Source of the DNA: Clostridia bacterium
GTDB lineage: Bacteria > Bacillota > Clostridia > Oscillospirales > CAG-272
Direction of reading: 5' to 3'
DNA length: 64,000 nt
Assembly: GCA_017467815.1 (NCBI GenBank)
Contig: JAFUKI010000123.1
Coordinates: 7,990 to 71,989, forward strand
Under the pieces are notes generated by a model, which saw only the letters and a program-made list of their open reading frames with translations, was not told the origin of the DNA and ran no database searches. Of the stretch, positions 1,325 to 28,499 are shown in pieces; the first letter of the stretch is position 1, and the number at the start of each line of letters is the position of its first letter. The position numbers and the translations under genes are program-made.

Positions 1325-1361
1325 TAAGATTGATTGAAACACAAAAATAACATAGTGAGCC

Positions 1362-1390: not shown

Positions 1391-1415
1391 ATATCATAGA
1401 GAGGAGGTATGTTTT

Positions 1416-2610: not shown

Positions 2611-2625
2611 AAGCAAAATTATATA

Positions 2626-2663
2626 ACAAAAAACGTCGGTGAAATAAACCCGACGTTTTTTTA
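2626..2663. terminator. Bidirectional rho-independent terminator (stem ACGTCGG/CCGACGT, A-run before, T-run after)
   Basis: Hairpin read directly. It sits between the convergent peptide A gene and the dinJ-like gene. Confidence 0.75.
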
Positions 2664-2673
2664 TATTCAGTTT

Positions 2674-2946
2674 TCATGCATCCAGAGCTGCCTTTAGATC
2701 ATCCATATTTGTATACCCCTTGACGGTCTTATCGAAAGCAAGTTTTCTGCCTTCTTCCAATGCCGAGATTGTAATATTATTGGGAATATTCAATTTTAAA
2801 TCAAAGGGAATACCGTTCTCGCGGATGGTTTGTCTCAAAAAAATGTTTATGGCGGTTGTCATATTCAAACCAAGTTCTTCGAAAATCTTTTCCGCAGCAA
2901 GCTTGACTTCCTTGTTTGTGCGAATATTTAAATTGGTAGTTTCCAT
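2674..2946 (-). CDS. RelB/DinJ-family antitoxin-like protein (no partner toxin gene)
   Basis: METTNLNIRTNKEVKLAAEKIFEELGLNMTTAINIFLRQTIRENGIPFDL is the typical DinJ ribbon-helix-helix N-terminus. The start was taken at the second ATG (METTN). Confidence 0.75.
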   Translation of the reverse strand: METTNLNIRTNKEVKLAAEKIFEELGLNMTTAINIFLRQTIRENGIPFDLKLNIPNNITISALEEGRKLAFDKTVKGYTNMDDLKAALDA

Positions 2947-3175
2947 AAAATACACCTCTCATATATAACTCCATATTTATTATATCATATTGTGTAGCTA
3001 TTGTCAACATAATGCACGAGTTATTTGAAGTAATTATTATTATAAAATCCTCTACATTAGACAGATGAAAGATAATAGTTTAGGTCATAATTTGTCAAAG
3101 TCGGAATGTTTTTATAAAAATCCTTTCATAAACTCTATAAAACATAGAATCAATGTAGACGTTTACTGAAAAATA

Positions 3176-3184
3176 TGGTATAAT
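3176..3184 (+). promoter_or_regulatory. Extended -10 element TGgTATAAT upstream of the rSAM operon
   Basis: Read directly. No good -35. Lies 66 nt upstream of the ATG at 3250. Confidence 0.45.
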
Positions 3185-3249
3185 ATATTGAATTTTATGG
3201 AATATAATGGCATGCAATAAAAACTTTTTGAAAAATAAAGGTACATCCT

Positions 3250-4266
3250 ATGGAATTTGAATCTGTCTATTTTGAATTAACAAACATCTGTAATCTGAAC
3301 TGCAAGACTTGTTATAATCGTTCGGGACTCAATAAAGAGCGGAAGGAAATCCCGGTAGAATCTTTGTTTACCGCAATCGAAATGTTCCGGAGATATGGCT
3401 TACAATCGGTTCATTTAAGTGGTGGTGAAACCATGCTGTATTCCGACATACAGTCACTGTTTGAAAAAATCGCTGCGACACCGAACATATACTTTACAAT
3501 GACTACGAACGGAACTGTAAATGGTGAGTTACTACTTGCTCAATACAGAAAAAATAAAAATTTCTTTGTACAGATCAGTCTGGATGGTTCCTGTGAAGAA
3601 GTAAACGCAAAAACGAGGGGACAAGGCGGATTTGCTAAAGCATTGGCTGTTCTGAAAGGACTCCATGACAGCGAGCGTCCTGTAGGCTATCGGATCAAGA
3701 TGGTACTGTCGAAGTATAATTTTGAGGATATACTGTCCTATTTCCGTCTTGCCTCAGAATATGGCTGCGAACCTCAATTTTCCTTTATGAGTTTAATCGG
3801 AAACGGTTTGCAAAACCAAGAGGATATGCTGCTTTCGGATATGGACAAAATGAAGGCGCTGCGTTACATAGATGAGGGAAATAAAGCATACGGTATGCAG
3901 GTAAAACTGCCATTCTGTGCATTTAGTTGTCCCTTTGGTGATGTTTCGGAAGATTTGAAAATCAACGGTATGGTAAAACCAAACGGTGATATTATGCCGT
4001 GCCAGGGGTTATATGATGAAAATTACCGTTTGGGCAACATATACGCTTTTGACGAAAGGGAAGTGTTTGACAATATTGAACGGTTGAAGAACATTGTCTG
4101 TACGCGTTTAAAAACAGATTACGGGTGCAGTAAATGTCTGATTGAACCCCTTTGTAAAAGAGGATGTCCATCAATGGCACTTTTGAACAGCGGAGATATC
4201 ATGGGAACGGATAAAGAATGTGCGTTTAGACTGAAACACTATTTGAAATATCAATTCAGAAAGTGA
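3250..4266 (+). CDS. Radical SAM enzyme with C-terminal SPASM domain (peptide maturase candidate)
   Basis: N-terminal CNLNCKTC (CxxxCxxC) in FELTNICNLNCKTCYN. C-terminal Cys-rich region with CSKCLIEPLCKRGC (CxxCx5Cx3C) plus further Cys (CAFSCPFG, MPCQG, ECAF). Confidence 0.9.
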   Translation: MEFESVYFELTNICNLNCKTCYNRSGLNKERKEIPVESLFTAIEMFRRYGLQSVHLSGGETMLYSDIQSLFEKIAATPNIYFTMTTNGTVNGELLLAQYRKNKNFFVQISLDGSCEEVNAKTRGQGGFAKALAVLKGLHDSERPVGYRIKMVLSKYNFEDILSYFRLASEYGCEPQFSFMSLIGNGLQNQEDMLLSDMDKMKALRYIDEGNKAYGMQVKLPFCAFSCPFGDVSEDLKINGMVKPNGDIMPCQGLYDENYRLGNIYAFDEREVFDNIERLKNIVCTRLKTDYGCSKCLIEPLCKRGCPSMALLNSGDIMGTDKECAFRLKHYLKYQFRK

Positions 4267-4273
4267 TACAGAA

Positions 4274-4714
4274 ATGGAAAAAACAAAACTACTCAAAATG
4301 ATTCTTGCAGCTAAGAATAGTTGTACCATAACGATAGCGGGAACCAGTATGATGCCCATACTTCAGCACGGACAGGAAGTAACTGTACTGCGTCAAAGTG
4401 ACTATATTATTGGAGATATTCTTGTGTATGAATACAAAAATGAGGGACTGCTGGCACACCGGTTATTAAAAATAGAAAACGGTCGGTATTTTTGCAAAGG
4501 TGATAATTCTTTCCGGATTGAGGATATATCCAAAGAACAGATTATGGGAAAAATTCCCTTAGAACAAGACGATCATACGGCGGATACGTTTATCCAGGCA
4601 TCGTACGCTATTGGCAGACTGTTCCGGAAGTGTGGATATAATTTGGAAATGACGAAAGCGAACCCTCAATATAGGGAGTATGCACATACTTATTTGGAGA
4701 AAACACATGAATAA
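4274..4714 (+). CDS. S24/S26-type serine peptidase (LexA/signal-peptidase fold), candidate leader peptidase
   Basis: IAGTSMMPIL (G-x-S-M-x-P nucleophile motif), GDILVY, and KGDNS downstream. Starts 7 nt after the rSAM stop. Confidence 0.65.
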   Translation: MEKTKLLKMILAAKNSCTITIAGTSMMPILQHGQEVTVLRQSDYIIGDILVYEYKNEGLLAHRLLKIENGRYFCKGDNSFRIEDISKEQIMGKIPLEQDDHTADTFIQASYAIGRLFRKCGYNLEMTKANPQYREYAHTYLEKTHE

Positions 4715-5888
4715 AACAGAAATCAAGGAAATCGTAAAGAAGGTTCTGTCTATAACAGAGATAGAAGATTCTGCTGATCTGCGTGAAATGGGTATGGAAT
4801 CGGTTCAGTTGGTCGGGTTGATCGTAGAACTGGAAAACAAATATGACATTGAAATTTTGGACAGTGATTTGCTTCCGGAGAAATTTTGCAGCGTTGATGT
4901 GATTTTTGATACTCTGCAGAAATACTGCAAGGATAGTACCCCACTGTACAAATGCATCATAACCGACTGCGACGGTGTACTGTGGAGAAAAATCGCAGGA
5001 GAAGCCGGAGAAGAAGCGGCGTATTCGGATACGGAAACACGAGAATTCTGTGAGACACTTGCAGGATTAAAGAAACGGGGCGTTCTGCTGGCGGGATGTA
5101 CCCGTAATGAGAAAAAGAATATTGAAAATATGCTGAATGCTGCAAGCATTTGCCTCGGTGTTTCTGATTTCAGTATGCTTGAGTATAACTGTGCAGATAA
5201 GGTATCCGCTGTTCGGAATATCCTTGCAGAGACAGGGTTCTATCCGGACAATGTTCTGTACATAGACGACAGTGATCAGGAGTTGGAGATACTTTCCACG
5301 GCAATACCGGAATTGAAATGTATAAAAGCATATGGGCAGGATGACTTTATAGAAGCATTGGCTTCACTCTTTTACAATCTGCCGGAAACCACAGATATTG
5401 ACCGAACAACTCAATTCCATTTAAAGAAGGAAAGAGAAAAAGTCCATATCGAAACCATGTCCGCCGAGGAATACAACCATATACTGGAAACAAACTTCTA
5501 TTGTGGCATAGCCGACAGGACGGATGCGGCTCGACTGGCAGAATTATCCCAACGCGCCAACCGATTTAATATAACCGATACCCGATATACCGTGGAAGAT
5601 ATAACTGAGCGTATAGACAATCCGGGATATATGGTTTACTATGTAAAAGTATCGGATAAATTCGGGGATATGGGAACTGTGGCAATGGCAGTTGTTTGCG
5701 GTAATGGGGAGATCGAAAGTTTTATTCTATCCTGCAGAGTGTTCGGGCGGAATTTTGAATCGCTGCTGTTGCAAAAAATACAGGAAATGACTGCAGCAGA
5801 ATTGCGAGGTGTATATGTATCCACCGGTAAAAACGACTATTGCCGAGACTTCTATAAAGAACATGGTGTAAATTATGAGACAAGATAA
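4707..5888 (+). CDS. Acyl-carrier-protein-like domain fused to an FkbH-like HAD-IIIC domain protein
   Basis: The N-terminal ~75 aa are ACP-like (LREMGMESVQLVGLIVELENKYDIEI, Ser in the DS-like position). Then the FkbH pattern follows: CIITDCDGVLWRKIAGEAGEE (DxD HAD motif I), YIDDSDQE, and C-terminal FILSCRVFGRNFES. Start taken at ATG 4707, an 8-nt overlap with the upstream stop. Confidence 0.75.
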   Translation: MNKTEIKEIVKKVLSITEIEDSADLREMGMESVQLVGLIVELENKYDIEILDSDLLPEKFCSVDVIFDTLQKYCKDSTPLYKCIITDCDGVLWRKIAGEAGEEAAYSDTETREFCETLAGLKKRGVLLAGCTRNEKKNIENMLNAASICLGVSDFSMLEYNCADKVSAVRNILAETGFYPDNVLYIDDSDQELEILSTAIPELKCIKAYGQDDFIEALASLFYNLPETTDIDRTTQFHLKKEREKVHIETMSAEEYNHILETNFYCGIADRTDAARLAELSQRANRFNITDTRYTVEDITERIDNPGYMVYYVKVSDKFGDMGTVAMAVVCGNGEIESFILSCRVFGRNFESLLLQKIQEMTAAELRGVYVSTGKNDYCRDFYKEHGVNYETR

Positions 5889-6927
5889 GATAATCGCAAA
5901 CATTCGCGAGATCATGCGTGGTGAATCTTCGCCTGATCCGGATACAATACGTTTTCTCAATCAGCATGAAGCCTATTATTTACTTTCAAAAATTCCGATC
6001 TACAAAAGTAAACAGGCTGTATATCTTGCAGTAAATCAGGTAGCGGTGAAGGAACGATATAAAGCCTGTGAAGCTTTATTTAAGGAATTGAACAGTTCAG
6101 ACATATCATATGCTGTCATAAAAGGTGCGGTATTGTCGGAACAAATATACGGCAGCACGGCGTATAGAAGGTCTGGTGATATTGATTTGTTGATAGCCCC
6201 CGATGCTATACAGAACGTAAAAACAATTTTAGAAAAGCATGGATTTATCCAGGGGCGTGTAGTGAATGATCAGATTATCCCTTACTCACGCCAGGAATTG
6301 ATTTATCAAAAAACATTCACCCACCAAATGGCAGCTTTTGTGAAAAAGATGGATAGTAAACTGTGTCCATTTATCAATGTTGATGTGAATGTGGATATAT
6401 TCTGGGGTGAAAGCAGCCGGAAAGCGGATATGACAACGTTTTTGCGTAATACGCAGATGTATAAGATTCACGATATTTTGATACGGAAATTGGATCCGGT
6501 GTTTGAATTTATTTCGCTGTGTATGCACCATTATAAGGATTTCAATTCTCTCTATTTGTTGGCTGACAGAGGCATTAAACTGTCTCATTTCTGTGATCTG
6601 TTTTACTATATTACCAATGTATCACCTGATTTGCAGGAACTCAAAAAAGTGTGTTGCACGTATGGTGTCACGGAGTATGTGGCATTTTGTATTTATCATA
6701 CGAATCGTCTTTTTCCAAATGAGCGATTGCAGGCGTATCTTGCTGCTTTGACTGATGGAGCAAACAATACAGAATATAACCGCTTCGGATTGACGGAATC
6801 GGAATATAAATATTTGGATTTCGGGATTTCCGACTACATATTGGATGAAGAATTAGGAAACACGTTCAGATCGAGTCTTACAGCACAAGACCGGACGAAA
6901 ATCGAGATCAATCGAAAATATATGTGA
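5875..6927 (+). CDS. Uncharacterised nucleotidyltransferase (NTP_transf_5-like)
   Basis: RRSGDIDLLIAPD motif and overall size and pattern of the family. Overlaps the upstream gene by 14 nt. Confidence 0.6.
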   Translation: MRQDKIIANIREIMRGESSPDPDTIRFLNQHEAYYLLSKIPIYKSKQAVYLAVNQVAVKERYKACEALFKELNSSDISYAVIKGAVLSEQIYGSTAYRRSGDIDLLIAPDAIQNVKTILEKHGFIQGRVVNDQIIPYSRQELIYQKTFTHQMAAFVKKMDSKLCPFINVDVNVDIFWGESSRKADMTTFLRNTQMYKIHDILIRKLDPVFEFISLCMHHYKDFNSLYLLADRGIKLSHFCDLFYYITNVSPDLQELKKVCCTYGVTEYVAFCIYHTNRLFPNERLQAYLAALTDGANNTEYNRFGLTESEYKYLDFGISDYILDEELGNTFRSSLTAQDRTKIEINRKYM

Positions 6928-6960
6928 TTGTTTCCATATAGAATAAAAAAGGTACTGAAA

Positions 6961-7740
6961 ATGAAGTTGACAATACAATTGCCATACCATGCAGATTGTT
7001 ATACCGTAGAAACAGAATGTCAGGATATTATGGATACATTGCGCCGGACATACGGTATGTACTGCCGTTTGGATACACAGACAGATACTGGCGCATACCA
7101 TATTACACAGATGGATAACGGATATTATATAACATATGACGGGCATACAATACCAACGGATAATCCGGTACAATACCTGCACAATGAAATGTTTCTAAAA
7201 AAGAAGATCACCCCCGGAATATTTGCACTGCATGCCGGAGGGGTATCCCATGATGACAAGGCATATATATTCTGTGCGCCGACAACCACCGGGAAAACAA
7301 CATTGACGGCATATCTTGCCGAACGGAACATGGAGTACATATCGGACGATTGTGTGTTTATAAATATGAATGATCTGTCCGTTTATCCATGCCATACACC
7401 CATTCATTTGAGAGAGGGCGGATACACGGTTTTGCAGGAACATGGCCTTGTACCCCATCCGATTGAAAAGGCAGATGAGAGATATGTCTATACGCCGAAA
7501 AAATTGTCTCCCTTGAGAATGGAAATCGGGAAAATTCTGTTTCTGACGCGTACTTTGGATACCAATGAAATAAAACCTCTCGGTAAGGCAGAGGCTTTAC
7601 GGCAGCTGATGGTGTCTCCTATAACGGTATATCCCATCACGAGAGAATATCTTGTGTTTTTGAATCGACTGATTCCGTATTGCTGTGAAGTGAAGTATTG
7701 TGATATGGAGTTTGTACTGGAGCAGATTGGAGTAAAATAG
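6961..7740 (+). CDS. HPr-kinase-related P-loop protein (candidate peptide kinase)
   Basis: LHAGGVSHDDKAYIFCAPTTTGKTTLTAYL resembles the HprK C-terminal domain P-loop. The start is uncertain (ATG 6961 or TTG 6928 directly after the upstream stop). Confidence 0.6.
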   Translation: MKLTIQLPYHADCYTVETECQDIMDTLRRTYGMYCRLDTQTDTGAYHITQMDNGYYITYDGHTIPTDNPVQYLHNEMFLKKKITPGIFALHAGGVSHDDKAYIFCAPTTTGKTTLTAYLAERNMEYISDDCVFINMNDLSVYPCHTPIHLREGGYTVLQEHGLVPHPIEKADERYVYTPKKLSPLRMEIGKILFLTRTLDTNEIKPLGKAEALRQLMVSPITVYPITREYLVFLNRLIPYCCEVKYCDMEFVLEQIGVK

Positions 7741-7837
7741 GCAGACTAAATAAAACTGTGCAGATACATGGTTTTTATTAAACGAGAAGATTTATGGCAA
7801 GGCCAATTTCCAATAGTAAAAGTTGGTCGCCAAACCA

Positions 7838-7873
7838 AATAACCTCCGCGAGAGTGTATCTCCGGAGGTTATT
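7838..7873. terminator. 11-bp perfect hairpin (AATAACCTCCG ... CGGAGGTTATT), possible terminator
   Basis: Stem read directly. There is no clear U-run on either strand. Confidence 0.35.
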
Positions 7874-8010
7874 GATAATTGTGTTTGGACTGTCCTTTCT
7901 TGCATTTTATATTGTATGGAAAATTTTACGGGAACACCGATCCAAATAACGTAAGATCAGCATTTTTCTGGATGATGTACTTTTGCGAGGGGACCAGATA
8001 ACTTACGGCT

Positions 8011-8298
8011 TTACACCAACTGTATGTCCGTTTCTTTCGCTTTTTCTTCCTCAAGGAGAGCATCAATCTTTCCTTTTAATTCTTGCAGATACGTTTTCGG
8101 ATCGTCCAGTTCAGCGAGCAACAGAATGGTAGTCAGAGTACCGCACATATTTTCGCCGGTTTCGATATCGGAATAGGAACGGTCGGTCATGATGAGTTTT
8201 TCTGCCATCTTGCTCTGGGTGAGGTTCAGACGGTCTCGGAGGGTCAGTGCCAGGGTACGCAGTTCTTCTTTTAATGCTTTTTCGATATTATGTCTCAT
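8011..8298 (-). CDS. XRE-family helix-turn-helix transcriptional regulator
   Basis: LTQSKMAEKLIMTDRSYSDIETGE is the canonical Cro/C1-type HTH. Confidence 0.75.
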   Translation of the reverse strand: MRHNIEKALKEELRTLALTLRDRLNLTQSKMAEKLIMTDRSYSDIETGENMCGTLTTILLLAELDDPKTYLQELKGKIDALLEEEKAKETDIQLV

Positions 8299-8413
8299 AA
8301 CAAATAATCAATCCAAACACAATCGAATAACATTGTATCATGTGTAAAATGGAAAGAAAATGTGTTATAGCCTGGTTTTCGACAAAAAATAGCAAATAAC
8401 ATGAAGAATATGC

Positions 8414-8442
8414 TTGACAATAAGATTTATTTATGATAGAAT
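8414..8442 (+). promoter_or_regulatory. Sigma-A promoter TTGACA-17-TGaTAGAAT for regulator paralogue 2
   Basis: Read directly. Near-identical design to 1362-1390. Confidence 0.65.
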
Positions 8443-8477
8443 AAAGTCAACAACGATGAAAGAAATGAGATGATACA

Positions 8478-9539
8478 TTGAACAATATAGTTTATCTTAA
8501 GGAACCTGGTATTCTGTATGATATGTTGTTTGCTCTCAAGCTGCGGTTCAATGGGGAACGGGCGTATTTGCCGTTGCGGACTGGTACTTCTTTGTATGAT
8601 CAAAATGAGAATTTATATCATTTAATCATTGAACGATTATCAGATATTTCTGATAAATTACTTCCTTTCTTCTATTATGACAAAGATAAAGATATATCAA
8701 CGGGCATGGTTACATATGTACGAGAATATATCAATCTTACCGCTTTTCAAGAATCGGGATTGATTGAACATTTCTACACAACATTACGAGATATCAATAG
8801 GCTAAAGCAATCAATTTATAAGAATTATATTTCCGATGATTGTCCAGATGATTTTGACAAAAACACGCTGTATACAATAAAAGATAATTTGTTTAATGCT
8901 GATTTGCCTAGTGATGTAAAAATGTACCTCCTTGATTTTCTATTGTATGGAGAGTATGAAATAGAAGAGATTATTGCTGAATTTAGAAATGTGGAATCAA
9001 TTTGTAGAGAGTTGAACCAAATACATCAGTCAGAAATCGAACAATTATTTGATAGATTTGAATCTGAACATCTTCGAACATTAAGCGCGTTGCATTGTAT
9101 TGATATATCTCAATACGAGAATGTGTATGTCACATACTGTTCAGTAAATATTGTTGCAGCTTCATTTGAAAAAGATGATAGAAAATGGCTTTCAGTATTA
9201 GGTTTACAAATCCATCAATTATTAGCAGTATATTATACTGAGATTGAGGCATCTGAGATTGATTTGTTAGGGTTAAGCCGTGTACTTTATGATGAGCAAC
9301 GATTAAGAATACTAGATATGTTGGTTATTGAAGATATGTATTGTGCTCAAATTGCAAAAAAATTAGGTTTAAAATCAAATAGCACTATTTACCATCTGAA
9401 TCATTTAGAAACAGAAGGGTTAATTATTAATTATAAAATCGGCAGAAAGATATATTATAAGATAAATAACAATTATTTCTGTTCTGTTATAGATTATCTG
9501 AAAGAGAAATTCGTGGAGAGAAAAAAGAATGAAGAATAA
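8478..9539 (+). CDS. ArsR-family winged-HTH regulator with a large N-terminal domain (paralogue 2)
   Basis: The C-terminus LYDEQRLRILDMLVIEDMYCAQIAKKLGLKSNSTIYHLNHLETEGLI...IYYKIN. Collinear similarity to 1416-2501 along the whole length (ISDKLLPFFYYD vs ISDRLLPLFYYD; DVKMYLLDFLL vs DLKLYLLDFFI). TTG start. Confidence 0.8.
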   Translation: MNNIVYLKEPGILYDMLFALKLRFNGERAYLPLRTGTSLYDQNENLYHLIIERLSDISDKLLPFFYYDKDKDISTGMVTYVREYINLTAFQESGLIEHFYTTLRDINRLKQSIYKNYISDDCPDDFDKNTLYTIKDNLFNADLPSDVKMYLLDFLLYGEYEIEEIIAEFRNVESICRELNQIHQSEIEQLFDRFESEHLRTLSALHCIDISQYENVYVTYCSVNIVAASFEKDDRKWLSVLGLQIHQLLAVYYTEIEASEIDLLGLSRVLYDEQRLRILDMLVIEDMYCAQIAKKLGLKSNSTIYHLNHLETEGLIINYKIGRKIYYKINNNYFCSVIDYLKEKFVERKKNEE

Positions 9540-9702
9540 CGTCAAAGAATGTTGGAAAAAGCCTGAATTAGTTTCTGTTGAAGAGGGAGCAGTAAAGAAA
9601 AATATTATTGCTTTTGCTTGTTCCCAGTACTCTGATGGGTGTTTCCCAGCAGGAGTACATCTTGACACCATTCCCGGATTCCCGTCGTGGGAAATCATGT
9701 AA
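9529..9702 (+). CDS. Candidate RiPP precursor peptide B, 57 aa (MKNNVKECWKKPELVSVEEGAVKKNIIAFACSQYSDGCFPAGVHLDTIPGFPSWEIM)
   Basis: Not in the ORF track. The ATG lies 8 nt after GGAGAG and overlaps the regulator 3' end by 11 nt. Shares WKKP, V-K, ACS, IPG and the terminal EIM with peptide A, and the last 12 nt (GAAATCATGTAA) are identical. A terminator follows it. Confidence 0.7.
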   Translation: MKNNVKECWKKPELVSVEEGAVKKNIIAFACSQYSDGCFPAGVHLDTIPGFPSWEIM

Positions 9703-9783: not shown

Positions 9784-9870
9784 TGGCGCAGGGTGTGGGA
9801 TTCGAACCCACGTGCCTGACGGCAAACGGTTTTCAAGACCGCCTCGTTATGACCACTTCGATAACCCTGC
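9784..9870 (-). tRNA. tRNA-Ser (anticodon UGA), CCA encoded
   Basis: Manual fold gives acceptor GCAGGGT/ACCCTGC, D arm with GG, and anticodon stem GCGGT/ACCGT with loop CTTGAAA. It also has a long variable arm (TGCC-GTCA-GGCA), a T arm GTGGG-TTCGAAT-CCCAC, discriminator G and CCA. Confidence 0.9.
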
Positions 9871-10047: not shown

Positions 10048-10400
10048 TTACTGTACATCCCCGTCGTCAAAACGGTCGCCGCATTCGGGACAGAACTTCG
10101 GCGGTGTGGTACCTTTTTCCGGTTCCCAGCCGCACTTGTCGCATTTGTACTGGGGAATGCCTGCCGGTTTCTTTGCGCCGCATTCGGGACAGAATTTGCC
10201 CTTGTTTACCGCACCGCAGGAACAGGTCCAGCCTTCCTCAGCCGGCTTGGCAGATCCGCATTCGGGACAGAATTTGCCTGTTGCGGTTGTGCCGCACTTG
10301 CAGGTCCAGCTGCCCGCGGGTTTGGGTTCGGGTTTCTTTGCACCGCACTGGGTACAGAAATTACCGGTTGATACTGTACCGCATGCATACTTCCAGCCAT
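10048..10400 (-). repeat. Intragenic tandem repeats (~78-81 nt units) encoding zinc-ribbon modules
   Basis: A recurring GCCGCATTCGGGACAGAA(T/C)TT-type unit is seen near 10079, 10178 and 10256, with a degenerate copy near 10337. Confidence 0.8.
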
Positions 10401-11439
10401 CCTGTTCTGATGCTGCGGGTGCCTGTGCTGCCTGCTGCTGCCCCATCTGGAACAGGTTCTGTGCATTTACTCCGCCGGCACCCATTGCCATGTTCATACC
10501 CATGAAACCCATAGCTGCGCCGCCGGAATTGCTGGCTGCTGCCTTCATTGCATCTGCCTGTGCACCGACCAGGGTTGCGCCTGCCATGGTGGGATCCTTG
10601 TACATAGCGGTCTTCTGGGCGGTTTTCAGCATTTCCTGGTCTTCTTCGGTCAGTGTCGGAGGATTGATGGAAACCTTGACATACCCGATACCCCTCGCAC
10701 CCCATTCGTCGGAAAGTGCTTCGTTCAGATGCTTTTCCAGTGCATCGGTATGAGCCGGAATCTGATTGGGACGGATCTCCAGCGTGGAAAGTTTGGCGAT
10801 AGAAACACCCAGCGCACTGATGAATTCATTCTTCATGGTATCCTTCAGCGCTTCCTTGCTGTAGGCGTGGGCGATATTGCCTGCTACGTTGGTGTACAGC
10901 TTCAGCGGGTCTACAACACGGAAGGTGTACGTACCGTTGCAGCGCAGGGAAACGTCCACATCAAAGCCGATCCGGGAATCCACTACGCGGAAAGCAATGG
11001 GATTTTTGGTGCCGAACTTGTTGTCCAGAATTTCTTTTGTGTTGAAATAGTAAACGCGCTGATCCTTGCCGGTGTCGCCGCCGTAGGTGAACCGTTTGCC
11101 GATCTGCTTGAAGGTTTCGATAATGCTTTCGCCGAGACTGCCGGTGAAAAGGGAAGGTTCGCTGGAGGAATTCCATGTGAATTCACCGGGTTCTGCGCAG
11201 AATTCCACAACCTTGCCCTGTTCCACGATGATCATGCACTGACCGTCCGCAACGGCAATGCCGGAACCGTTGGAAATAATGCTGTCTTCACCTTTTGTAT
11301 TGGAGGAGCGTGCGCTGGTGCGCTTCTGTCCTTTTACGATCAGAATATCGTTTGGAATGGAATCACAGTAGAAAAACTCTTTCCACTGATCCGCAAGTAC
11401 ACCGCCGGCAGCTCCGGTTATCGCTTTAATAAGTCCCAT
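10048..11439 (-). CDS. SPFH-domain (YdjI/virion-core-like) protein with a C-terminal array of four zinc ribbons
   Basis: The N-terminus MGLIKAITGAAGGVLADQWKEFFYCDS and the following body match the YdjI-type SPFH family pattern. The C-terminus carries 4x W-x-C-x-CG-x5-(K/N)FC-x-xCG-AKKP. Confidence 0.75.
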   Translation of the reverse strand: MGLIKAITGAAGGVLADQWKEFFYCDSIPNDILIVKGQKRTSARSSNTKGEDSIISNGSGIAVADGQCMIIVEQGKVVEFCAEPGEFTWNSSSEPSLFTGSLGESIIETFKQIGKRFTYGGDTGKDQRVYYFNTKEILDNKFGTKNPIAFRVVDSRIGFDVDVSLRCNGTYTFRVVDPLKLYTNVAGNIAHAYSKEALKDTMKNEFISALGVSIAKLSTLEIRPNQIPAHTDALEKHLNEALSDEWGARGIGYVKVSINPPTLTEEDQEMLKTAQKTAMYKDPTMAGATLVGAQADAMKAAASNSGGAAMGFMGMNMAMGAGGVNAQNLFQMGQQQAAQAPAASEQDGWKYACGTVSTGNFCTQCGAKKPEPKPAGSWTCKCGTTATGKFCPECGSAKPAEEGWTCSCGAVNKGKFCPECGAKKPAGIPQYKCDKCGWEPEKGTTPPKFCPECGDRFDDGDVQ

Positions 11440-12885: not shown

Positions 12886-14013
12886 ATGTATAAAAATACC
12901 GCTGTCATTTGTGAAACGAACCCATTCCATAACGGACACGCCTGTGTATTTCGTAAAGCAAAAGAAGATTCGGGCATTGTAACCGCCGTTATGAGTGGAA
13001 ATTTCGTACAGCGCGGGCTTCCTGCTGTATGGGATAAATACACCAGAGCCGCCCTTCTTCTGGAAAACGGTGCAGATATTGTAGTGGAGTTGCCATATCC
13101 CTGGTCCGTCGGTAGTGTGGAAGCATTTTCTCTGGGCGGTGTTGCTGTTGCCATGGAAATGGGCTGTGACCGGCTGATGTTCGGCAGTGAATCGGGAGAT
13201 ATGGAAATGCTTCGGAAAGCCGCAGAGTGGCTGGAAGCGGAAGAAGAACGATTCAGCACATATGCGGTCTGCCACCCGGATACAGGAGCAGCGGTACTGT
13301 ACGATATGCTTGCCGCAGAGAGCGGTTTTTCTCTTTTTGCCAACGATAAGCTTGGGGTGTGGTATCTTCGTCAGATGAAGGCTTTGGACTGTCGGGCGAC
13401 GGCTGAGGCGGTAAAAAGACTGCCTGCCGGTGCGGGTATTGCAAGCGCCAGCACTTTGCGTGATCATCTTGCCGAAGGAAGGGACTGCACACCGTTTGTA
13501 CCTGCTTCCGTGGCGCAGAAGATGAAGGACACGGCGGTCACCTTCCCAAAGCGGTTCTATGATATTGCCCATACGTATTTCCGTTTGTTCGCGGGGGATT
13601 CAGCCTGCGCGGAAGGGGAAGGCGGCTTGTGGGAACGTCTGAAGAAGACCGCATATACCGCAGAAAACGGCACGGATTTTCTGAAATCTGCCGCAACAAA
13701 AAAATACACGGACGCCAGGATCCGCCGTACTGCCTTGTTCGGTATGACCGGGATACAGCAGGAGATTCTGAAATCGCGTCCGTTATATACGATATTGCTT
13801 GCTGCGGGAGAAAAAGGTCGGGAATGGCTGCGGAATTATACATTGGCTGAAGATTTCACAGTATTAACCAAACCGGCGGATCGGAGCAAAATGAGCGGAT
13901 CTGCCGCAGAACAGTATGATTTTCTCTGTGAGGTAGACAGCCTGTACGGTTTATGTATGAACCCGCCTGTTTCCGGGGATTTCTTTCTGAAAAAGCACCC
14001 GATAATCGGTTAA
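12886..14013 (+). CDS. tmcAL: tRNA(Met) cytidine acetate ligase (YlbM/UPF0348 nucleotidyltransferase)
   Basis: CETNPFHNGHACVFRKAKE...VMSGNFVQRG matches the YlbM/TmcAL HxGH-type N-terminus. Start moved to ATG 12886, which has an AGAGGAAG RBS. Confidence 0.8.
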   Translation: MYKNTAVICETNPFHNGHACVFRKAKEDSGIVTAVMSGNFVQRGLPAVWDKYTRAALLLENGADIVVELPYPWSVGSVEAFSLGGVAVAMEMGCDRLMFGSESGDMEMLRKAAEWLEAEEERFSTYAVCHPDTGAAVLYDMLAAESGFSLFANDKLGVWYLRQMKALDCRATAEAVKRLPAGAGIASASTLRDHLAEGRDCTPFVPASVAQKMKDTAVTFPKRFYDIAHTYFRLFAGDSACAEGEGGLWERLKKTAYTAENGTDFLKSAATKKYTDARIRRTALFGMTGIQQEILKSRPLYTILLAAGEKGREWLRNYTLAEDFTVLTKPADRSKMSGSAAEQYDFLCEVDSLYGLCMNPPVSGDFFLKKHPIIG

Positions 14014-14573
14014 GGACATATCGGCAAAGCCTCGGCATTGGTCAGCAGATCCCCAACGCAGCCTGTAAACAAGAACTGTGCCTGATCCAGAGCCGTATAA
14101 TCAATGGGATGCATCAGGGACGAAGGCTTGGGCAGCTGTACCGCACCGCTTTCGTCCAGAATGTCCGCAACAAACTGGGAACAGAAGAAATGATGCTGCC
14201 GGCGCAGGGAAATGCCCCAGTAGCACAGAATCACGCCAAGAAGGTTGTAGTGGTATGTTTTTTCGCTGTCCGCCATATCCTGCAGTCTTTCACAGATCAG
14301 GGCATGGGCTTCATCGGATACGGGAAGGGCAATCAGGGTACACTGGGTATCGGGATGGGCGCCGAAATAACCGCTGCACAGCTTTTCCTGAATGAAACCT
14401 GCCGGGAGGGGATAACGGCAGATTTTTCTGCCGAAACTGTAGAATGCCCCGAAAGTGCCGTTTTCAAAAGTGGTTGCCAGAGAAATATGTGTGTACGGCG
14501 CATTGGTCAGATGATGGATCACGGCAGACAGAAAAGTGCCGGAACGGGTTAAAAGAAGATAGATCGTTTTCAT
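14010..14573 (-). CDS. Permuted papain-fold (YiiX/C92, NlpC/P60-superfamily-like) protein
   Basis: A His-first, Cys-later arrangement: APYTHISL ... HHFFCSQFVADIL (compare the F-C-S-E-L-V nucleophile motif of the family). Confidence 0.5.
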   Translation of the reverse strand: MKTIYLLLTRSGTFLSAVIHHLTNAPYTHISLATTFENGTFGAFYSFGRKICRYPLPAGFIQEKLCSGYFGAHPDTQCTLIALPVSDEAHALICERLQDMADSEKTYHYNLLGVILCYWGISLRRQHHFFCSQFVADILDESGAVQLPKPSSLMHPIDYTALDQAQFLFTGCVGDLLTNAEALPICP

Positions 14574-14671
14574 GGTATCCTCGTAGAATTTGTTGTCCTA
14601 AGTATACCACAAAAATATAAACTGTCTATAATATATCCTTTTGAATACCTTAATAATTGTTTAAGGTATTT

Positions 14672-15937
14672 TTAATTTTGCACTGTTGTTTCTGCCGCAC
14701 ATCCTGCCAGGGCATCGAAAAATTCTCTGTCGGACATCCGGTGAACCCTGTCCAGAATGGTGATGTGCATATCGTTGGCGCGTTCACGCATATACCGTAC
14801 CGCAAGGTCACCGTCATAACTGCGGTCTTCCGGATCAAAATAGGTGGTGGAAACCAGGATGCGGCGGGCATATTTGTTCCCGAATCTTCCGGCAACCGTG
14901 TGGAGTTTGTACAGCTCGTCGGTTTTGATATCGCCGTTTTTGCAGGAAATAAAATAGGGCAGCACGCCCTGCATCAGCATGACGTCGATCTCGTTCCGGG
15001 TATCCGAACCGTTCCACTCAATGACAACCCCTGCTCCGGCGTCGGTGTAGGGGATCTTTACATTGTCGGCTTTGTAATGGAAAGCGGTCATATAGGTCTT
15101 GTACTCCAGAAGCGTGCCGGATTTGGTGAGACAATCTTTGATATAGGGATTTTTGAAGGTACAGTACTGTCTGCCGCCAAGACGCTGGAAAGAGAGCATT
15201 CCAAAGCTTTCCAGTCTGCTCATGAAGTTTTCATCCATCCCTTTTTCGTGATAGGAATATACGCTGGGGTCTTCTTCCGTCTCACGTACAGAACCGCCCA
15301 GTCGCCCTGTCTGCTGATTCCAGAACCCGCAGTCGGGAATGCACAGTTTCCATAAGCGGTTTATATCCTTATACACGGAATCGGTAAAAGGGAAGCCGTC
15401 AGCAGTGTTGCCGGAAACCATTTCTTCCCGGATTCTGCCGTTGTGGAGAAGGATACCCTCCGCATTGGTCAGCTCGACTTTGTTTTCATCGGAAGTCCCG
15501 TCAATGGGAATCAGGCGGATGTCCCCGGTGCCGTTCAGGGGGATCCGGTAAAGCATACCCTGGCGTGTTTCGGCGCTGATCTGAAAAATATGCGCCCGTT
15601 GGTCGGTCAGACGGAAAACCATCCCCACAGCCACAAGCGCCGCTTCCTCACCGCCGGTGAAATCGAATACATACTCATCCTCACCGAATACCCGACTGCC
15701 GTATTCGATGATATCCTTCAGAATATCCAGAATGCCGGAGAGGTCGTAAGAATCCATAACACGCAGACTCAGGGAGGTCTTCAGTCCCCTTGCACGAAGA
15801 ATTTTCTGGATGGCAGGCAAAGCATCGGACAGCTTTCGTCTGTCGGTTCCGATAAAGACAACCCGTCTGGGACGAAGGGCAAGGGAACCAAGAATATTGG
15901 ACAGGGGCGTTTTATCAAAAAATTCGATCAGTGTCAT
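14672..15937 (-). CDS. CARF-like Rossmann domain fused to a DUF1887/Card1-type PD-(D/E)xK nuclease domain
   Basis: N-terminal FDFTGGEEAALVAVG (D-x-TGG CARF-type loop). C-terminal GTLLEYKTYMTA ... NEIDVMLMQGVLPYFISCKNG ... restriction-endonuclease-like motif. Confidence 0.65.
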   Translation of the reverse strand: MTLIEFFDKTPLSNILGSLALRPRRVVFIGTDRRKLSDALPAIQKILRARGLKTSLSLRVMDSYDLSGILDILKDIIEYGSRVFGEDEYVFDFTGGEEAALVAVGMVFRLTDQRAHIFQISAETRQGMLYRIPLNGTGDIRLIPIDGTSDENKVELTNAEGILLHNGRIREEMVSGNTADGFPFTDSVYKDINRLWKLCIPDCGFWNQQTGRLGGSVRETEEDPSVYSYHEKGMDENFMSRLESFGMLSFQRLGGRQYCTFKNPYIKDCLTKSGTLLEYKTYMTAFHYKADNVKIPYTDAGAGVVIEWNGSDTRNEIDVMLMQGVLPYFISCKNGDIKTDELYKLHTVAGRFGNKYARRILVSTTYFDPEDRSYDGDLAVRYMRERANDMHITILDRVHRMSDREFFDALAGCAAETTVQN

Positions 15938-16052
15938 AATCGTACTCCGTAAAGAAACTCAGGTATAGTATTGCCTTATAGTATAAATTATAGCAAATTT
16001 CCCATACATTTGCAATAGAAAAACTCTCCCGGCGTACGGAAGAGTTTTTTTG

Positions 16053-16781
16053 TCAGAATTCGATTTTGTTTTGGTATCTTGTGGGCAGACCTTCCGCGAA
16101 CAGATGGCTGTCATTGGAGAGGGTCAGAATCATGGGATTCGTATAACCGGAAGGATTGTTGCCGAAGTCGATAACCGTCAGGTCGGAATGGGAAATATCG
16201 AAAGAGGTCCATGCAACGGGGTGGGGAATATCCAGAAGCGCCCCCAGCCAGGTCAGACCGAAACCGTGGTGACAGAATACGGCAATACGCTCGTCGGTGG
16301 GGTTCACAATTTTGTATTTGGCTTCATTCGGATCGTGTTCATAGCCATGTTCAGCTAAAAATGCATCGCTGGCAGCACGGAGACGCTGGCAGGCAGGAAG
16401 GGGATTGATGCCGATTCTCTTGAAATAGTCCGCTTTGTACCATTCCTTGCCCAGCTTTTCCACTTCGGGAGAACGGAGTTCCACAATGCCTTCCTGGGTA
16501 CGGAAGCACCACTCGGCTTTACCGGGTTCATAAACATAAGCAAGCTCGTCCCAGTACAGATCTTCGTTTGCCCATTCCAGAATGCCCATTTCCTTGTCCA
16601 GAAGATCACAGGTGGGCTGGGCGGTAACACGGGCGCGGTTCAGCGGGGAAGAATAGATCTTGTCCACGCCGTAACGTGCCAGACGCTTGGCAAGCGCTGC
16701 TGCCTGCAGAGTACCTCTCGGAGTCAGTTCGTCGTGTTCGTTATATGTAGGGTCACCATGTCGGATGATGTAAAGTAACAT
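16053..16781 (-). CDS. Histidine phosphatase (phosphoglycerate-mutase-like) family protein, paralogue 1
   Basis: MLLYIIRHGDPTYNEHDELTPRG (RHG catalytic motif) and a later VFCHHGF His. Confidence 0.85.
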   Translation of the reverse strand: MLLYIIRHGDPTYNEHDELTPRGTLQAAALAKRLARYGVDKIYSSPLNRARVTAQPTCDLLDKEMGILEWANEDLYWDELAYVYEPGKAEWCFRTQEGIVELRSPEVEKLGKEWYKADYFKRIGINPLPACQRLRAASDAFLAEHGYEHDPNEAKYKIVNPTDERIAVFCHHGFGLTWLGALLDIPHPVAWTSFDISHSDLTVIDFGNNPSGYTNPMILTLSNDSHLFAEGLPTRYQNKIEF

Positions 16782-16851
16782 GATTCAAATCCTTTCAAAA
16801 GTATAGTGGCGTTTTTGTCGGTAAATGATTACTTCTGAAAAAATGCCGATA

Positions 16852-17574
16852 TCAGAAATACAGGTAATTGTTGTAATCCGTGGGCAGGCCTTCTGCGTAA
16901 ATATGGCTGTCATTGGAGTGGGTCAGAAGCGTGGGGACGGTGTATCCGAACTTGTTGTCGGCAAAACGAACCACACTTACGTTGGAATGGGAGATAACGA
17001 GGGTCGTCCATGCGAGGGGCAGGGGAATATCCAGCAGAGTACCGAGCCATGTCAGGCTGAAACCGTAATGACAGGATACGGCAATACGCTTTTCGTTGTG
17101 ATCCAGGATCTTGTAGCGGGAACCTTCATGCTCATAGCCCAGGGATTTCAGGAAGGCATCGCTTTCTTTGAGCAGGTTTTTGCATGCCGGTTCGGGATTG
17201 ACGCCGATTCTCTTGAAATAGTCCGCCTGATACCAATCTTTGCCCATGGCAAGTACTTCGGGAGAGCGCAGTTCCTTTCTGCCTTCGGGAGAACAGAAAC
17301 ACCACTCACCGCGGCCGGGCTCCATTTCATAAGCAAAGGAATTCCAGTAAATATCTTCATTTGTCCATTCCAGAATTTTCATATCTTTTTTCAGGAGATG
17401 GCAGAGGGGTTCCACAGTTTTCTGCGCGCGGGGACGGGGGGAAGAATAGATTTCATCCATACCGTAACGTGCCAGACGCTTGGCAAGAGCTGCGGCTTGA
17501 AGGGTACCTTTTTCGGTCAGTTCATCCTGTTCATTGTATGTGGGATCACCGTGACGAATGATATAAAGTAACAT
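16852..17574 (-). CDS. Histidine phosphatase family protein, paralogue 2 (tandem duplicate)
   Basis: MLLYIIRHGDPTYNEQDELTEKG. Collinear with 16053-16781. Confidence 0.85.
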   Translation of the reverse strand: MLLYIIRHGDPTYNEQDELTEKGTLQAAALAKRLARYGMDEIYSSPRPRAQKTVEPLCHLLKKDMKILEWTNEDIYWNSFAYEMEPGRGEWCFCSPEGRKELRSPEVLAMGKDWYQADYFKRIGVNPEPACKNLLKESDAFLKSLGYEHEGSRYKILDHNEKRIAVSCHYGFSLTWLGTLLDIPLPLAWTTLVISHSNVSVVRFADNKFGYTVPTLLTHSNDSHIYAEGLPTDYNNYLYF

Positions 17575-24927: not shown

Positions 24928-26702
24928 CAATGTCCTTACAAAAACTATCTCGTTCATGTTGATGTGTGCCATGTTGTTTTGCTTATCCGCTTGCGGCGGG
25001 TCTGGGAACTTCGAAAAAGAACAAGAAGAAAAAGAGTTTGTAACGCTAACTTGGACAGAGAATCCATTTGCGGAAAAAGTTCCGACTCCAAAATCCACAT
25101 TAGGCTATATCAATAATAATAATCGTTCGATGTTTGAAGTATATCTTTCCGATTTTACTTTGGTCGATTTTAATGAATATGTGGATGCGTGTGTTGAAAT
25201 GGGTTATACCGTGGAACAAAACAGGCAAGACGCTTTCTTTTATGCTAAAAACCGAGGACTATTACGAAGTAAGAGTAGAGCATGAAGACGGTAATATCAT
25301 ACATATCGCAATATCCGAAGTTGAATATGATGTTGAAATCAAAGTAATTCGCGCCAACAATTCTTCCAAATGCGAGGTTGAAATTGACGGTTACTATGAA
25401 GAAGAAATAGAGTCAGGAGATATGGTCGCATCCTTCGATTCTTACCTAAATGTAGGAACCCACGAATTGAGGGTCATTAACACCGAGGATGATGATATTT
25501 ATGGAACCATATTCTTCGATGTAACATCAGATTCTTATTATGAATTTGAAATCAACTGTACTGATGTCGAGGTTGAAATTTCAGCAAGAGGTGAGGCAAA
25601 CGGTCAGCAAGGTGAAAAAGGGAATGAAGCAACTGCTGACAAGGATTTTCTTGCAGAAATTGAAGCGGCAGTATTAGAGAGAATGGACACCCCAACAAAT
25701 ACAAATCGTGAAAGAAGAATAGCGGTTGATGCAGAACTATATCAAATTACGCCGTTTGCCGAAAAAGAATTTCTTGATGCTCAATTAAAGCAACTTGCTA
25801 TTCAATACATTGATGGACTCAAACTACAAAAAGAAGCGAGCGAGACAGAGCATGATTACGAAGAGCCTATTACCTGGTACGAAGGGTTGGTAACTTGCTA
25901 TGAAGTTTTGAATGTCTTACATCAGAACTACGATTTCTTGACGGATAATTCTAAGTTCATTACCACCTATGTGTCACAACTTAACGAGAAGCAAGCATTG
26001 CTTGCAGCATATAAAGCCGTTGAGGAAGATTTATCAGAGCAATGTGCTGGCGAATTAGTGAACGATTACGATGGAACAAATATGTCGCTTACTTTTAGCA
26101 ACAACACCGAGTATGAGTACAGTACTATATGGAAAATTACATATTTTGATATCAATGGAACCGCAGTAGGAACTGAGTCAACAGAAGTAGAAAACATTTG
26201 CTCTGGGCAAAACTATACCGTATATTTCTATGTTCCACTTCCTGAGAAAACAGATAACTATGAGTTTACAGCATATTTTACAAATGTTATTTTGCCAGAT
26301 GAAGATGACGAAGAACTTTTTGTAGCAAAAGGCGAAACATCGCTAATGAACTTTTTAGATGCAGCCTCGCACAATGGATATGAAATTATTGATCCGCAGC
26401 GCGATGGAAGTTATGTAAATGCAAAAGCAAAGAAAGGTAGTGTTACATTCAGCATTCAATATATGGTGGAAAACCAAAAGGTATACATGGTAGAGGTCGT
26501 GTTAGATATTTTTGGTGAAATAGATTCTGAGTATACAGACTGCATTGCCGGATTAGCAAAGGCGTTAAATCCCAATATTGACTCGAATGTATTGAACCGA
26601 GCCATTGAAGAGGCTTTGACTACTCCTAATCAGAGAGTTATAAAAAGCGAAACACTATTCCTGTTTGACGATGATGAAGGAGTGTTTACTGTTACACACT
26701 AA
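24920..26702 (+). pseudogene. Lipoprotein gene interrupted by a +1 frameshift at an A5 run (25247-25251)
   Basis: The N-terminal ORF has a lipobox (LFCLSAC|GGSG). Frames 24920-25285 and 25134-26702 overlap. Removing one A restores ...DAFFYAKTEDYYEVRVEHEDGNIIHIAIS... within one domain. Confidence 0.6.
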
Positions 26703-28460: not shown

Positions 28461-28499
28461 AAAACTTCTCCTTTCAGATGCGTGAACAGAGGAAAATAC

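Follow-up and report, generated by a model that had tools for sequence, protein, structure and literature searches.

What would a sensor of the kind found in type III CRISPR systems answer to where no CRISPR system is in sight? The question is raised by a gene, here called gene A, in a stretch of 64,000 nucleotides (hereafter the window) from contig JAFUKI010000123.1, positions 7,990 to 71,989, of the Clostridia bacterium assembly GCA_017467815.1. An earlier reading of the letters alone (the sequence-only reading) had seen in gene A a stand-alone protein with a CARF sensor domain and a PD-(D/E)xK nuclease domain, similar to Card1 and Can2, and had paired it with the neighboring gene B. It left three options: an orphan effector whose signal is distant or foreign, a catalytically altered sensor, or a housekeeping relative. 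We find that gene A is an intact stand-alone member of a large, Clostridia-centered clade of the Can2/Card1/VC1899 family, in which a CARF4/Crf4 sensor is joined to a PD-(D/E)xK nuclease. The ligand pocket of this clade appears to be reversed in charge, and those of its members that are linked to CRISPR lie in type III-B loci with the membrane protein CorA, a receptor of the signal S-adenosylmethionine-AMP (SAM-AMP). We propose, at about an even chance, that gene A encodes a nuclease gated by SAM-AMP or by a cationic nucleotide like it, present here as an orphan under purifying selection.

Identity and fold of gene A

The product of gene A is 100% identical to GenBank entry MBQ7922902.1, a hypothetical protein from a Clostridia bacterium metagenome-assembled genome. 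The peptides quoted in the sequence-only reading, FDFTGGEEAALVAVG (residues 91-105) and NEIDVMLMQGVLPYFISCKNG (residues 315-335), and its open reading frame (ORF) positions are present in the sequence as it gave them. Among sequence profiles, Pfam PF09002 (Card1_endonuc) matched with E=2e-4 and 21.2 bits, under the 26.4-bit cut-off; many gene A homologs carry precomputed PF09002 matches. The PADLOC profile CARF4--CARF_PDDEXK matched with E=2.7e-23, and PADLOC Csx1/CARF profiles matched residues 2-141. An NCBIfam profile search gave no match, and a PDB sequence search with gene A alone as query returned only a weak match, to 1xmx. A family profile, not a single sequence, was needed to align gene A to its PDB relatives by HMMER.

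The fold was read from an AlphaFold (AF2) model built from 30 homologs, with a mean predicted local distance difference test score (pLDDT) of 89.6. Searched against the PDB with Foldseek, this model found its best structural match in VC1899 (1xmx, E=7e-21) and also matched SthCan2 (7bdv, E=5e-19); other whole-chain matches were Cdn1 (9u49), a Dysgonamonadaceae Can2 (8bao), Card1 (6xl1/6wxw), TbrCan2 and Can1. The full-length matches (1xmx, 7bdv, 9u49, 6xl1 and 8bao) range from E=1e-21 to 1e-15, and unrelated folds start only at E>1e-4. Sequence identity to the solved structures is 12-18%. At the level of the predicted fold, the placement of gene A in the Can2/Card1/VC1899 family is secure, and the earlier description of a stand-alone Card1/Can2-like protein is upheld by the full-length fold matches together with the PADLOC result. 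The model divides into a CARF domain, a middle insert and a nuclease domain (Table 1). In the insert, the motif E160-N-x-x-L-H-G-G167 has changed in the clade to which the window's copy belongs (N161G, G166N).

The ligand pocket

Conservation was read from 118 full-length homologs of gene A (32-100% identity) and from 145 further sequences, each representing one 50%-identity cluster. The most striking departure from the characterized relatives lies in the sensor. Can2 proteins bind cyclic tetra-adenylate (cA4) through a motif, NxTGGTK, of which T, G, G, T and K touch the ribose and phosphate of the ligand in TbrCan2 (PMC10783487), and of which the Lys is conserved in Can2 clades (PMC12825302). 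In HMMER alignments, D92-x-[ST]94-G95-G96-[DE]97-[ED]98 of gene A and its homologs falls on NVTGGTK of Can2 and NISGGTK of 8bao, so that D-x-[ST]-G-G-[DE]-[ED] stands in for the cA4-binding motif throughout the clade. Position 97 is acidic in 116 of the 118 homologs and position 98 in 106 of them; among the wider representatives, a Lys follows the two glycines in only 1 of ~118 sequences with a readable motif. Further conserved residues of the pocket are E5, D8, N14, D92, G95, G96, R119 and R125, with Gln replacing R119 in the window's clade.

From these alignments, the pocket of the clade appears to be conserved yet reversed in charge at the phosphate-binding positions. Because the pocket residues themselves are conserved, we suggest that the pocket has been re-tuned, not lost to decay. 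This change in the sensor is larger than the change in the nuclease site and had been overlooked in the sequence-only reading. A similar case has been discussed for VC1899, whose acidic pocket was argued by Zhu et al. to be incompatible with cA4 binding and which cA4 did not activate (PMC7969007).

The nuclease site

The putative catalytic residues of gene A align by HMMER with those of its structural relatives: N315-E316-I-D318 falls on the NExD strand of VC1899, SthCan2 and 8bao, and S331-C-K333 on their E-C-K. The Ser that had been noticed at the acidic position before C-K is therefore a true substitution. E278, N315, E316, D318, S331, C332, K333, N334, G335, E341, L342, Y343 and K344 are invariant in 118/118 homologs, and SxK is kept in 143 of the 145 further cluster representatives. 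Since the Ser is invariant in the one set and nearly so in the other, we read it as a signature of the clade and not as a lesion. The counterparts of the ExD residues in SthCan2, E276 and D278, abolish activity when mutated (PMC7969007). TbrCan2, which has no ECK and carries Ser356 at the position of the ExK Glu, is nevertheless an active cA4-dependent nuclease, and its Ser356 takes part in outer-sphere, water-mediated coordination of Mn2+ (PMC10783487).

The copy of gene A in the window retains all catalytic and core pocket residues. To call it catalytically altered, as one option of the sequence-only reading did, was an overstatement: the Ser is family-wide, the other catalytic residues are invariant, and TbrCan2 is active with Ser. 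E341 might be a stand-in for the lost Glu of ExK, as a migrated catalytic residue of the Cfr10I/NgoMIV kind, although it may not be specific to the clade, because Can2 and 8bao likewise carry an acidic residue near this position in the HMMER alignment.

Relatives of gene A in type III-B loci

The window itself holds no type III locus. Precomputed Pfam labels span 4.7-25 kb and 27.8-64 kb of it, and the other or unlabeled ORFs, scanned with Pfam and PADLOC, revealed no cas gene or cyclase. No CRISPR-like tandem array was found in the 64 kb, and a tblastn search of the window with Cmr1-6, Cas10, CorA, Cas6, Cas1, Cas2 and DEDD sequences from related loci gave no match. These scans bear out the earlier statement that the window has no cas gene, CRISPR repeat or cyclase. 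A position in or beside a type III locus is found only for some relatives of gene A.

A scan of one genome per GTDB species gave 562 species-level genome loci with a relative, of which the best 80 were taken for neighborhoods; the family also comprises 699 clusters at E<=1e-30. No neighbor is conserved family-wide in these; the best, a purine nucleoside phosphorylase, occurs in 13/80 loci. A repeat scan found CRISPR arrays beside the homolog in loci L049 and L064. By PADLOC, L049 reads Cmr1, Cas10, Cmr3, Cmr4, Cmr5, CorA, A, Cas6, array, and L064 reads Cas10, Cmr3-6, CorA, Cas6, RT-Cas1 (reverse transcriptase fused to Cas1), Cas2, array, A; by tblastn, L036 reads Cmr1-6, CorA, A. These three make up the cas-linked share of the 36 species-level genome loci that have at least 5 kb on both flanks (3/36). 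Metagenomes scanned with the gene A homologs of L036, L049 and L064 as seeds added L097 (A, Cas6, CorA, Cmr1-6, array) and a human-gut group, L120-L128, together with L125 (A, Cas6, Cmr1-6, CorA, then a small DEDD-type exonuclease). The linked homologs represent at least five lineages with no more than 55% mutual identity, scattered among orphans in a neighbor-joining tree. They keep the signatures described above: a pocket of DLTGGDD, DLDGGED or DLTGGDE, then NExDV, F[IV]SCKNG and EELYKL.

CorA is present in every cas-linked locus that is not cut by a contig end, and no effector responding to cyclic oligoadenylate (cOA) was seen in the cas-linked loci. CorA is rare, occurring in only 53/1113 type III loci of complete genomes (PMC11229360). 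As a rough estimate, the chance of meeting five independent CorA loci, had gene A joined type III loci at random, is of the order of 1e-7. The CorA proteins of the linked loci have an N-terminal YSYHxFxFPF and the motifs IN[DE][FY]GRR and DDRM, which correspond to two motifs known from the CorA-1 clade, R152-R153 and D219-D220; mutating these motifs in CorA-1 of B. fragilis abolished immunity. Their Cas10 proteins are 491-549 aa long, lack an HD domain and have an intact GGDD. Chi et al. tied D70 and E151, reported for the Cas10 of SAM-AMP synthases, to SAM binding; D72 and E146 (L049 numbering), both invariant, lie close to these in the Cas10 proteins of the linked loci, a match by near-equal position and not by alignment to the B. 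fragilis Cas10. A DEDD phosphodiesterase beside corA is one known SAM-AMP-degrading partner. The DEDD call for the small ORF after corA in L123 and L125 comes from DxE and HxxxxD motifs read by eye only, and this ORF has no match in Pfam or the PDB. For L036, L049, L064 and L097, Pfam and tblastn searches turned up none of the known degraders (NrN, DEDD, lyase) in the available sequence, whose extent is limited by contig ends. Because of the CorA-1 motifs, the HD-less Cas10 with GGDD and, by position, D72/E146, and the DEDD beside corA in the L120-L128 group and L125, there is good support at the level of motifs for placing the linked loci in the CorA-1 SAM-AMP class. The recurrence of family members in CorA loci was another point that the sequence-only reading had overlooked.

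The CorA-type III-B loci with a homolog occupy mobile contexts. A TraG/VirD4-type coupling protein is encoded directly upstream of the locus in L123 (8432-9823) and L125 (6428-7771); L049 has IS66 fragments, an EndoU toxin and a tyrosine integrase at 13142-17064; and L064 (6818-8728 and 13499-15085) has a serine recombinase and the RT-Cas1 fusion.

Orphan copies and their maintenance

Two human-gut metagenome loci, L117 and L126, capture the loss of a CRISPR locus from beside gene A. They are 97-99% identical to L123 but lack L123:11599-19231 (7.6 kb), and their gene A is intact. The deletion begins inside cas6 and extends to the end of corA, so that the 3' part of cas6, cmr1-6 and most of corA are gone, and a DEDD fragment is kept. 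Deletion is thus one route by which orphans arise.

The orphan in the window is under strong purifying selection, with a ratio of nonsynonymous to synonymous divergence (dN/dS) of ~0.08 against L005, a comparison in which dS is near saturation. Its synteny with ackA, the HIGH_NTase1 and His_Phos_1 genes and transporters is kept in relatives down to ~52% identity. The family is absent from the 2.9 million viral contigs of IMG/VR, and with no relative there a phage origin of gene A was rejected.

Another orphan subclade sits in a recurring same-strand module (L039, L040, L041, L046, L053, L057, L062, L063, L069, L075 and L081). Its order is one or two 160-aa proteins, gene A, a ~1150-aa AAA+/AAA+/Peptidase_M41 protein, one or two multi-transmembrane proteins (600-720 aa) and a 95-aa RyR-domain protein. 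PADLOC recognized no known system in this module, only generic AAA+ (IetA-like) similarity. In L123 and L125, where the homolog is CRISPR-linked, a similar AAA+/M41 protein is encoded 5 kb upstream of it. One family member, P0298 (833 aa), is fused C-terminally to ~400 residues of TPR-like repeats, as read from its sequence only.

A candidate SAM-AMP-responsive nuclease

SAM-AMP signaling was discovered in 2023, and the molecule has a cationic methionine moiety where cOA has phosphates. Because of this moiety, and because the linked relatives lie only in CorA-1 type III-B Cmr loci, SAM-AMP or a close cationic nucleotide would be the likeliest ligand of gene A, rather than cA4 or cyclic hexa-adenylate (cA6). 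Chi et al. reported that acidic residues replace Asn and Arg in the acceptor site of Cas10 for SAM recognition. By analogy, the changes N->D, T->D/E and K->E/D in the pocket of the gene A clade appear to follow the same basic-to-acidic logic.

From homology, we infer that the gene A protein would work as a dimer and as a metal-dependent nuclease gated by its ligand. A small molecule binding across the CARF dimer would trigger cleavage of DNA and/or RNA and lead to arrest of the infected cell. For the orphan copy in the window, the signal would come from another part of the genome or from an incoming element; the use of effectors in trans between type III loci has been proposed (PMC11229360). 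Among the earlier options, an orphan effector with a distant or foreign signal fits best, with the amendment that the signal is probably neither cA4 nor cA6. The reading we favor, that of a nuclease gated by SAM-AMP or a related cationic nucleotide, is one we consider evenly balanced between true and false. A broader claim, which we advance more tentatively and put somewhat below even, is that the clade as a whole is a CARF sensor re-tuned from cOA to SAM-AMP; it would be the first CARF-family receptor of this molecule and a second, nuclease-type effector or sensor-degrader besides CorA.

Several observations weigh against this proposal. In 33 of the 36 genome loci whose flanks extend 5 kb or more to either side, cas genes are absent from the vicinity, and the window's own clade (L005-L034) has zero CRISPR-linked members. 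That clade also departs from the rest at the near-invariant family positions R119Q, N161G and G166N; position 166 is Gly in 90/90 sequences outside it and N, S, H, R, Q or G inside it. Because of these three substitutions, the ligand or its coupling may differ in the window's clade, and some functional shift is possible there. VC1899, an orphan with an acidic pocket, shows only weak, unregulated RNase activity in vitro (PMC7969007). The evidence for SAM-AMP as the ligand consists of genomic association and pocket chemistry, and on the Cas10 side the resemblance to known synthases is one of position.

An unlikely but serious contender is that gene A is a chromosomal nuclease with a role outside CRISPR, be it repair, nucleic-acid turnover or another kind of defense, which answers to some cellular ligand and whose CorA-linked members are secondary. 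Such a role would suit the housekeeping neighbors and their retention in relatives down to ~52% identity, the size of the family, the majority of orphans among its members, the AAA+/M41, multi-transmembrane and RyR-domain module of another orphan subclade, and the precedent of VC1899 as a non-CRISPR orphan. It is harder to reconcile with the repeated and exclusive link, in five or more scattered lineages, to a single rare CRISPR subtype, with signature residues that are the same in linked and orphan members, with a deletion seen directly to turn a linked copy into an orphan, and with the lack of any family-wide neighbor. A different possibility, which we regard as rather unlikely, keeps SAM-AMP and changes the task: rather than act as a toxic effector, gene A would mainly degrade or sequester the molecule, as an off-switch or 'required degrader' of CorA systems like NrN, DEDD, SAM-AMP lyase and the CARF ring nucleases. 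CorA immunity strictly needs a degrader (PMC12255297), and in L036 and L049 gene A directly follows corA, the usual slot of NrN, DEDD or lyase genes, none of which was detected in the visible parts of these loci, L064 and L097. There is precedent for CARF domains that act as ring nucleases and for proteins, Csm6 among them, that both sense and degrade, and a harmless degrader would be easily kept as an orphan. However, the L12x group and L125 already have DEDD beside corA, with gene A at the opposite end of the locus; the L036 and L097 contigs end near the locus, so that a known degrader could lie beyond; and a full, invariant PD-(D/E)xK site goes beyond what cutting a single phosphodiester in a dinucleotide-like molecule would require.

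Two further explanations fare much worse. It is very improbable that gene A is a conventional Can2/Card1 effector activated by cA4 or cA6 and located at a distance from its type III locus. In overall fold and domain order it matches Can2/Card1, and orphan or in-trans effectors are plausible, but the cA4-binding Thr and Lys of NxTGGTK have become two acidic residues throughout the clade, a pocket of this character has been argued by Zhu et al. for VC1899 to be incompatible with cA4, and the linked relatives lie only in loci of the CorA, SAM-AMP type, where the trend is one signal per locus. More improbable again is that the protein is a pseudo-enzyme, inactive for want of the Glu of ExK and retained only for sensing or scaffolding. 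That a metal-binding Glu is replaced by Ser and that VC1899 is only residually active in vitro might suggest it; yet the remaining catalytic residues are invariant over at least 260 diverged sequences, dN/dS is ~0.08, and TbrCan2 is active with Ser at the same position.

Comparison with known systems and significance

Within a known family of effectors, gene A stands out as a new and sharply defined variant. With Can2, Card1 and Cdn1 (Crf4, DUF1887; 7bdv, 6wxw/6xl1, 8q3y, 9u49) it shares the CARF domain, the helical insert, the PD-(D/E)xK domain and the series E...ExD...xK, and some of its relatives are likewise encoded within type III-B loci. It differs in that its clade has DxSGG[DE][ED] for NxTGGTK and SxK for ExK, in that the linked relatives occur only with CorA, and in that most members are orphans. 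VC1899 of Vibrio cholerae (1xmx), the founding DUF1887 orphan, is also a stand-alone protein with no type III locus nearby, and its CARF pocket is acidic or hydrophobic, not basic, and gives no activation by cA4 (PMC7969007). VC1899, however, keeps E-C-K, has SCGLR instead of the GG motif and belongs to a Vibrio lineage, and no CRISPR-linked relative of it that shares its pocket is on record. TbrCan2 (clade 1, Thermoanaerobacter brockii) resembles gene A in having Ser at the position of the ExK Glu and a Glu on the next helix, and it is an active Mn2+-dependent nuclease. Its motif is SxTTS, its Lys has moved to the helix (K369) and it has the canonical cA4-binding NxTGGTK, whereas gene A keeps the Lys on the strand. 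Finally, relatives of gene A share loci with the CorA/NrN/DEDD/lyase module, lying beside corA or cas6, and their pocket shows the same acidic-for-basic logic as Cas10, but the fold of gene A is unrelated to any component of that module.

The constituents of SAM-AMP signaling are not thoroughly characterized according to the 2025 CRISPR classification. Within the searchable literature we found no CARF or Can2-like protein linked to SAM-AMP, as sensor or degrader, and no SAM-AMP receptor besides the membrane protein CorA. The predicted charge-reversed pocket, the intact catalytic site and the exclusive link to CorA-1 type III-B loci make the gene A clade a concrete candidate for a second SAM-AMP-responsive protein. 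The clade also provides a natural series of pocket variants from which to learn how CARF domains switch ligand. If it does sense SAM-AMP, hundreds of orphans in gut and rumen Clostridia would either respond to SAM-AMP in trans or be what remains after loss of Cmr and CorA. The findings may also help to explain the long-standing puzzle of orphan DUF1887 proteins, VC1899 among them: at least some orphans would be leftovers or satellites of a signaling CRISPR system, and one deletion of this kind is seen in the metagenomes. Should the ligand prove different, gene A still represents a new and well-defined subfamily within an effector class already known.

Gene B and the supposed pair

Gene B has no Pfam match, and its NCBIfam match to YaeF reached only E=0.15 and 11 bits against a 279-bit cut-off. 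Its structural model (pLDDT 92.6) matches over the full length, by Foldseek, 3kw0 (a B. cereus 'cysteine peptidase') and E. coli YiiX (2if6), with template modeling (TM) scores of 0.55-0.63 and a probability of 1.0. The gene B family has 274 detectable members in Firmicutes, with H29, R49, E63, F130-C131-S132, P156 and D158 invariant, and in a profile alignment both the His and the Cys segments are collinear with 3kw0. Because of these fold matches, the invariant His29 before Cys131 and the collinear alignment, the permuted papain fold seen by the sequence-only reading (a His...Cys order like that of permuted NlpC/P60 proteins) holds for the predicted structure. Gene B thus shares with the YiiX/YaeF family (2if6, 3kw0) its full-length fold and a conserved His before a conserved Cys (in an FCSQFV helix); it differs in having no significant Pfam or NCBIfam match, in forming its own family and in having no functional link to gene A.

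The two-gene pair, by contrast, did not survive a look at the neighborhoods. By tblastn over the 80 species-level loci, gene B lies near gene A only in the five closest (L005-L011, with gene A at least ~51% identical), and nothing of the pair is conserved beyond relatives with at least ~50% identity. Between the two genes lie 1.2-1.3 kb of other DNA in L006, L007 and L011 and a 2-hydroxyacid dehydrogenase gene in L089; in Enterococcus, gene B stands beside HMG-CoA synthase without gene A. Adjacency limited to close relatives, these insertions, the solitary gene B of Enterococcus, the separate promoter-like sites and the hairpins on either side of gene A together lead us to reject a functional pair. 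The adjacency is local synteny, of the sort that gene A has in common with ackA and the HIGH_NTase1 gene. Similar neighbors are met elsewhere: the Cdn1 (DUF1887) locus of P. lutiphocae is described as adjoining genes for a radical SAM enzyme and for a hydrolase of LRAT-like, permuted papain fold (PMC12825302), and L097 has a transglutaminase-like gene (2070-3128) two genes upstream of its gene A homolog. These echo the adjacency of genes A and B, but they belong to different protein families, and the adjacency is not conserved in the gene A clade.

Surroundings of gene A

Around gene A lie genes for an SPFH/Band_7 protein, acetate kinase (ackA), a HIGH_NTase1 (TmcAL-like) protein, gene B, two His_Phos_1 paralogs and an SNF transporter, with ACPS, Metallophos and HAD genes also near. 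Farther away are ABC and MatE transporters, a two-component system and cell-wall genes. Hairpins and promoter-like sites in the intergenic regions (Table 1) suggest that genes A and B are separate transcription units and that gene A is probably transcribed as a unit of its own.

Table 1. Features of gene A, gene B and the adjoining intergenic regions (window positions).
Feature	Position	Strand	Basis or remark
Terminator-like hairpin and U-run closing the upstream His_Phos_1 gene	16019..16049	-	13 bp, -16.4 kcal/mol, z = -5.65
Promoter-like TTGCAA-17-TATAAT, extended TG, ~50 nt 5' of the gene A start	15987..16015	-	consensus match only
Gene A, CARF + PD-(D/E)xK protein of Can2/Card1/VC1899 type	14672..15937	-	421-aa ORF
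CARF (Rossmann-like) domain, N-terminal, residues 1-146	15500..15937	-	model secondary structure, PADLOC, HMMER alignment to Can2 CARF
Putative ligand-pocket motif D92-F-T-G-G-E97-E98 at the Can2 NxTGGTK position	15644..15664	-	HMMER alignment
Gene A codons 166, 161 and 119	15440-15442, 15455-15457, 15581-15583	-	clade comparison
Middle helical and beta insert, residues 150-270	15128..15490	-	model; invariant W196, W206, N207
Restriction-endonuclease-like domain, C-terminal, residues 272-421	14675..15124	-	model and Foldseek; alpha-beta-beta-beta-alpha-beta core
E278, invariant Glu of the first core helix; counterpart of TbrCan2 Glu304	15104..15106	-	homolog alignment
N315-E316-I-D318, invariant ExD predicted catalytic strand; counterpart of SthCan2 E276/D278	14984..14995	-	HMMER alignment
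S331-C-K333, Ser replacing the Glu of ExK; clade-invariant	14939..14947	-	HMMER and homolog alignments
E341, invariant Glu starting the helix after the SxK strand	14915..14917	-	homolog alignment and model
AT-rich 10-bp hairpin immediately past the gene A stop	14644..14670	-	-8.5 kcal/mol, z = -3.5; no U-run after
Promoter-like TAGACA-16-TATACT 5' of gene B	14601..14628	-	consensus match only
Gene B, YiiX/3kw0-like permuted papain-fold protein	14010..14573	-	187 aa; 98 nt from gene A

Tandem duplication is seen at several places in the window. Immediately upstream of gene A stand the two His_Phos_1 paralogs (minus strand, 16053-16781 and 16852-17574), of which L005 has three copies, and the window also has three MatE genes (27072-31669) and two BD-FAE esterases (31926-33558) in tandem. 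An ORF of 905 aa (56005-58722, plus strand) has no match in Pfam or PADLOC; the ORFs at 25134-26702, 49899-51278 and 51327-52268 have no Pfam match and no significant PADLOC match. The SPFH/Band_7_1 protein (10048-11439, minus strand) ends in five CxxC...CxxC zinc-ribbon repeats at its C-terminus.

Positions 1-9600 of the window form an island of low GC content (33-41%, vs ~49% elsewhere) that adjoins a tRNA gene (9787-9870, minus strand). It encodes a radical-SAM/SPASM enzyme (3250-4266), a PP-binding protein (4680-5888), an NTP_transf_5 protein (5875-6927), two paralogs of 350-380 aa with a C-terminal ArsR-type helix-turn-helix (1362-2501 and 8478-9539) and a 57-aa ORF (9529-9702). The island looks like an acquired peptide-modification cluster of the type that makes ribosomally synthesized and post-translationally modified peptides (RiPPs).

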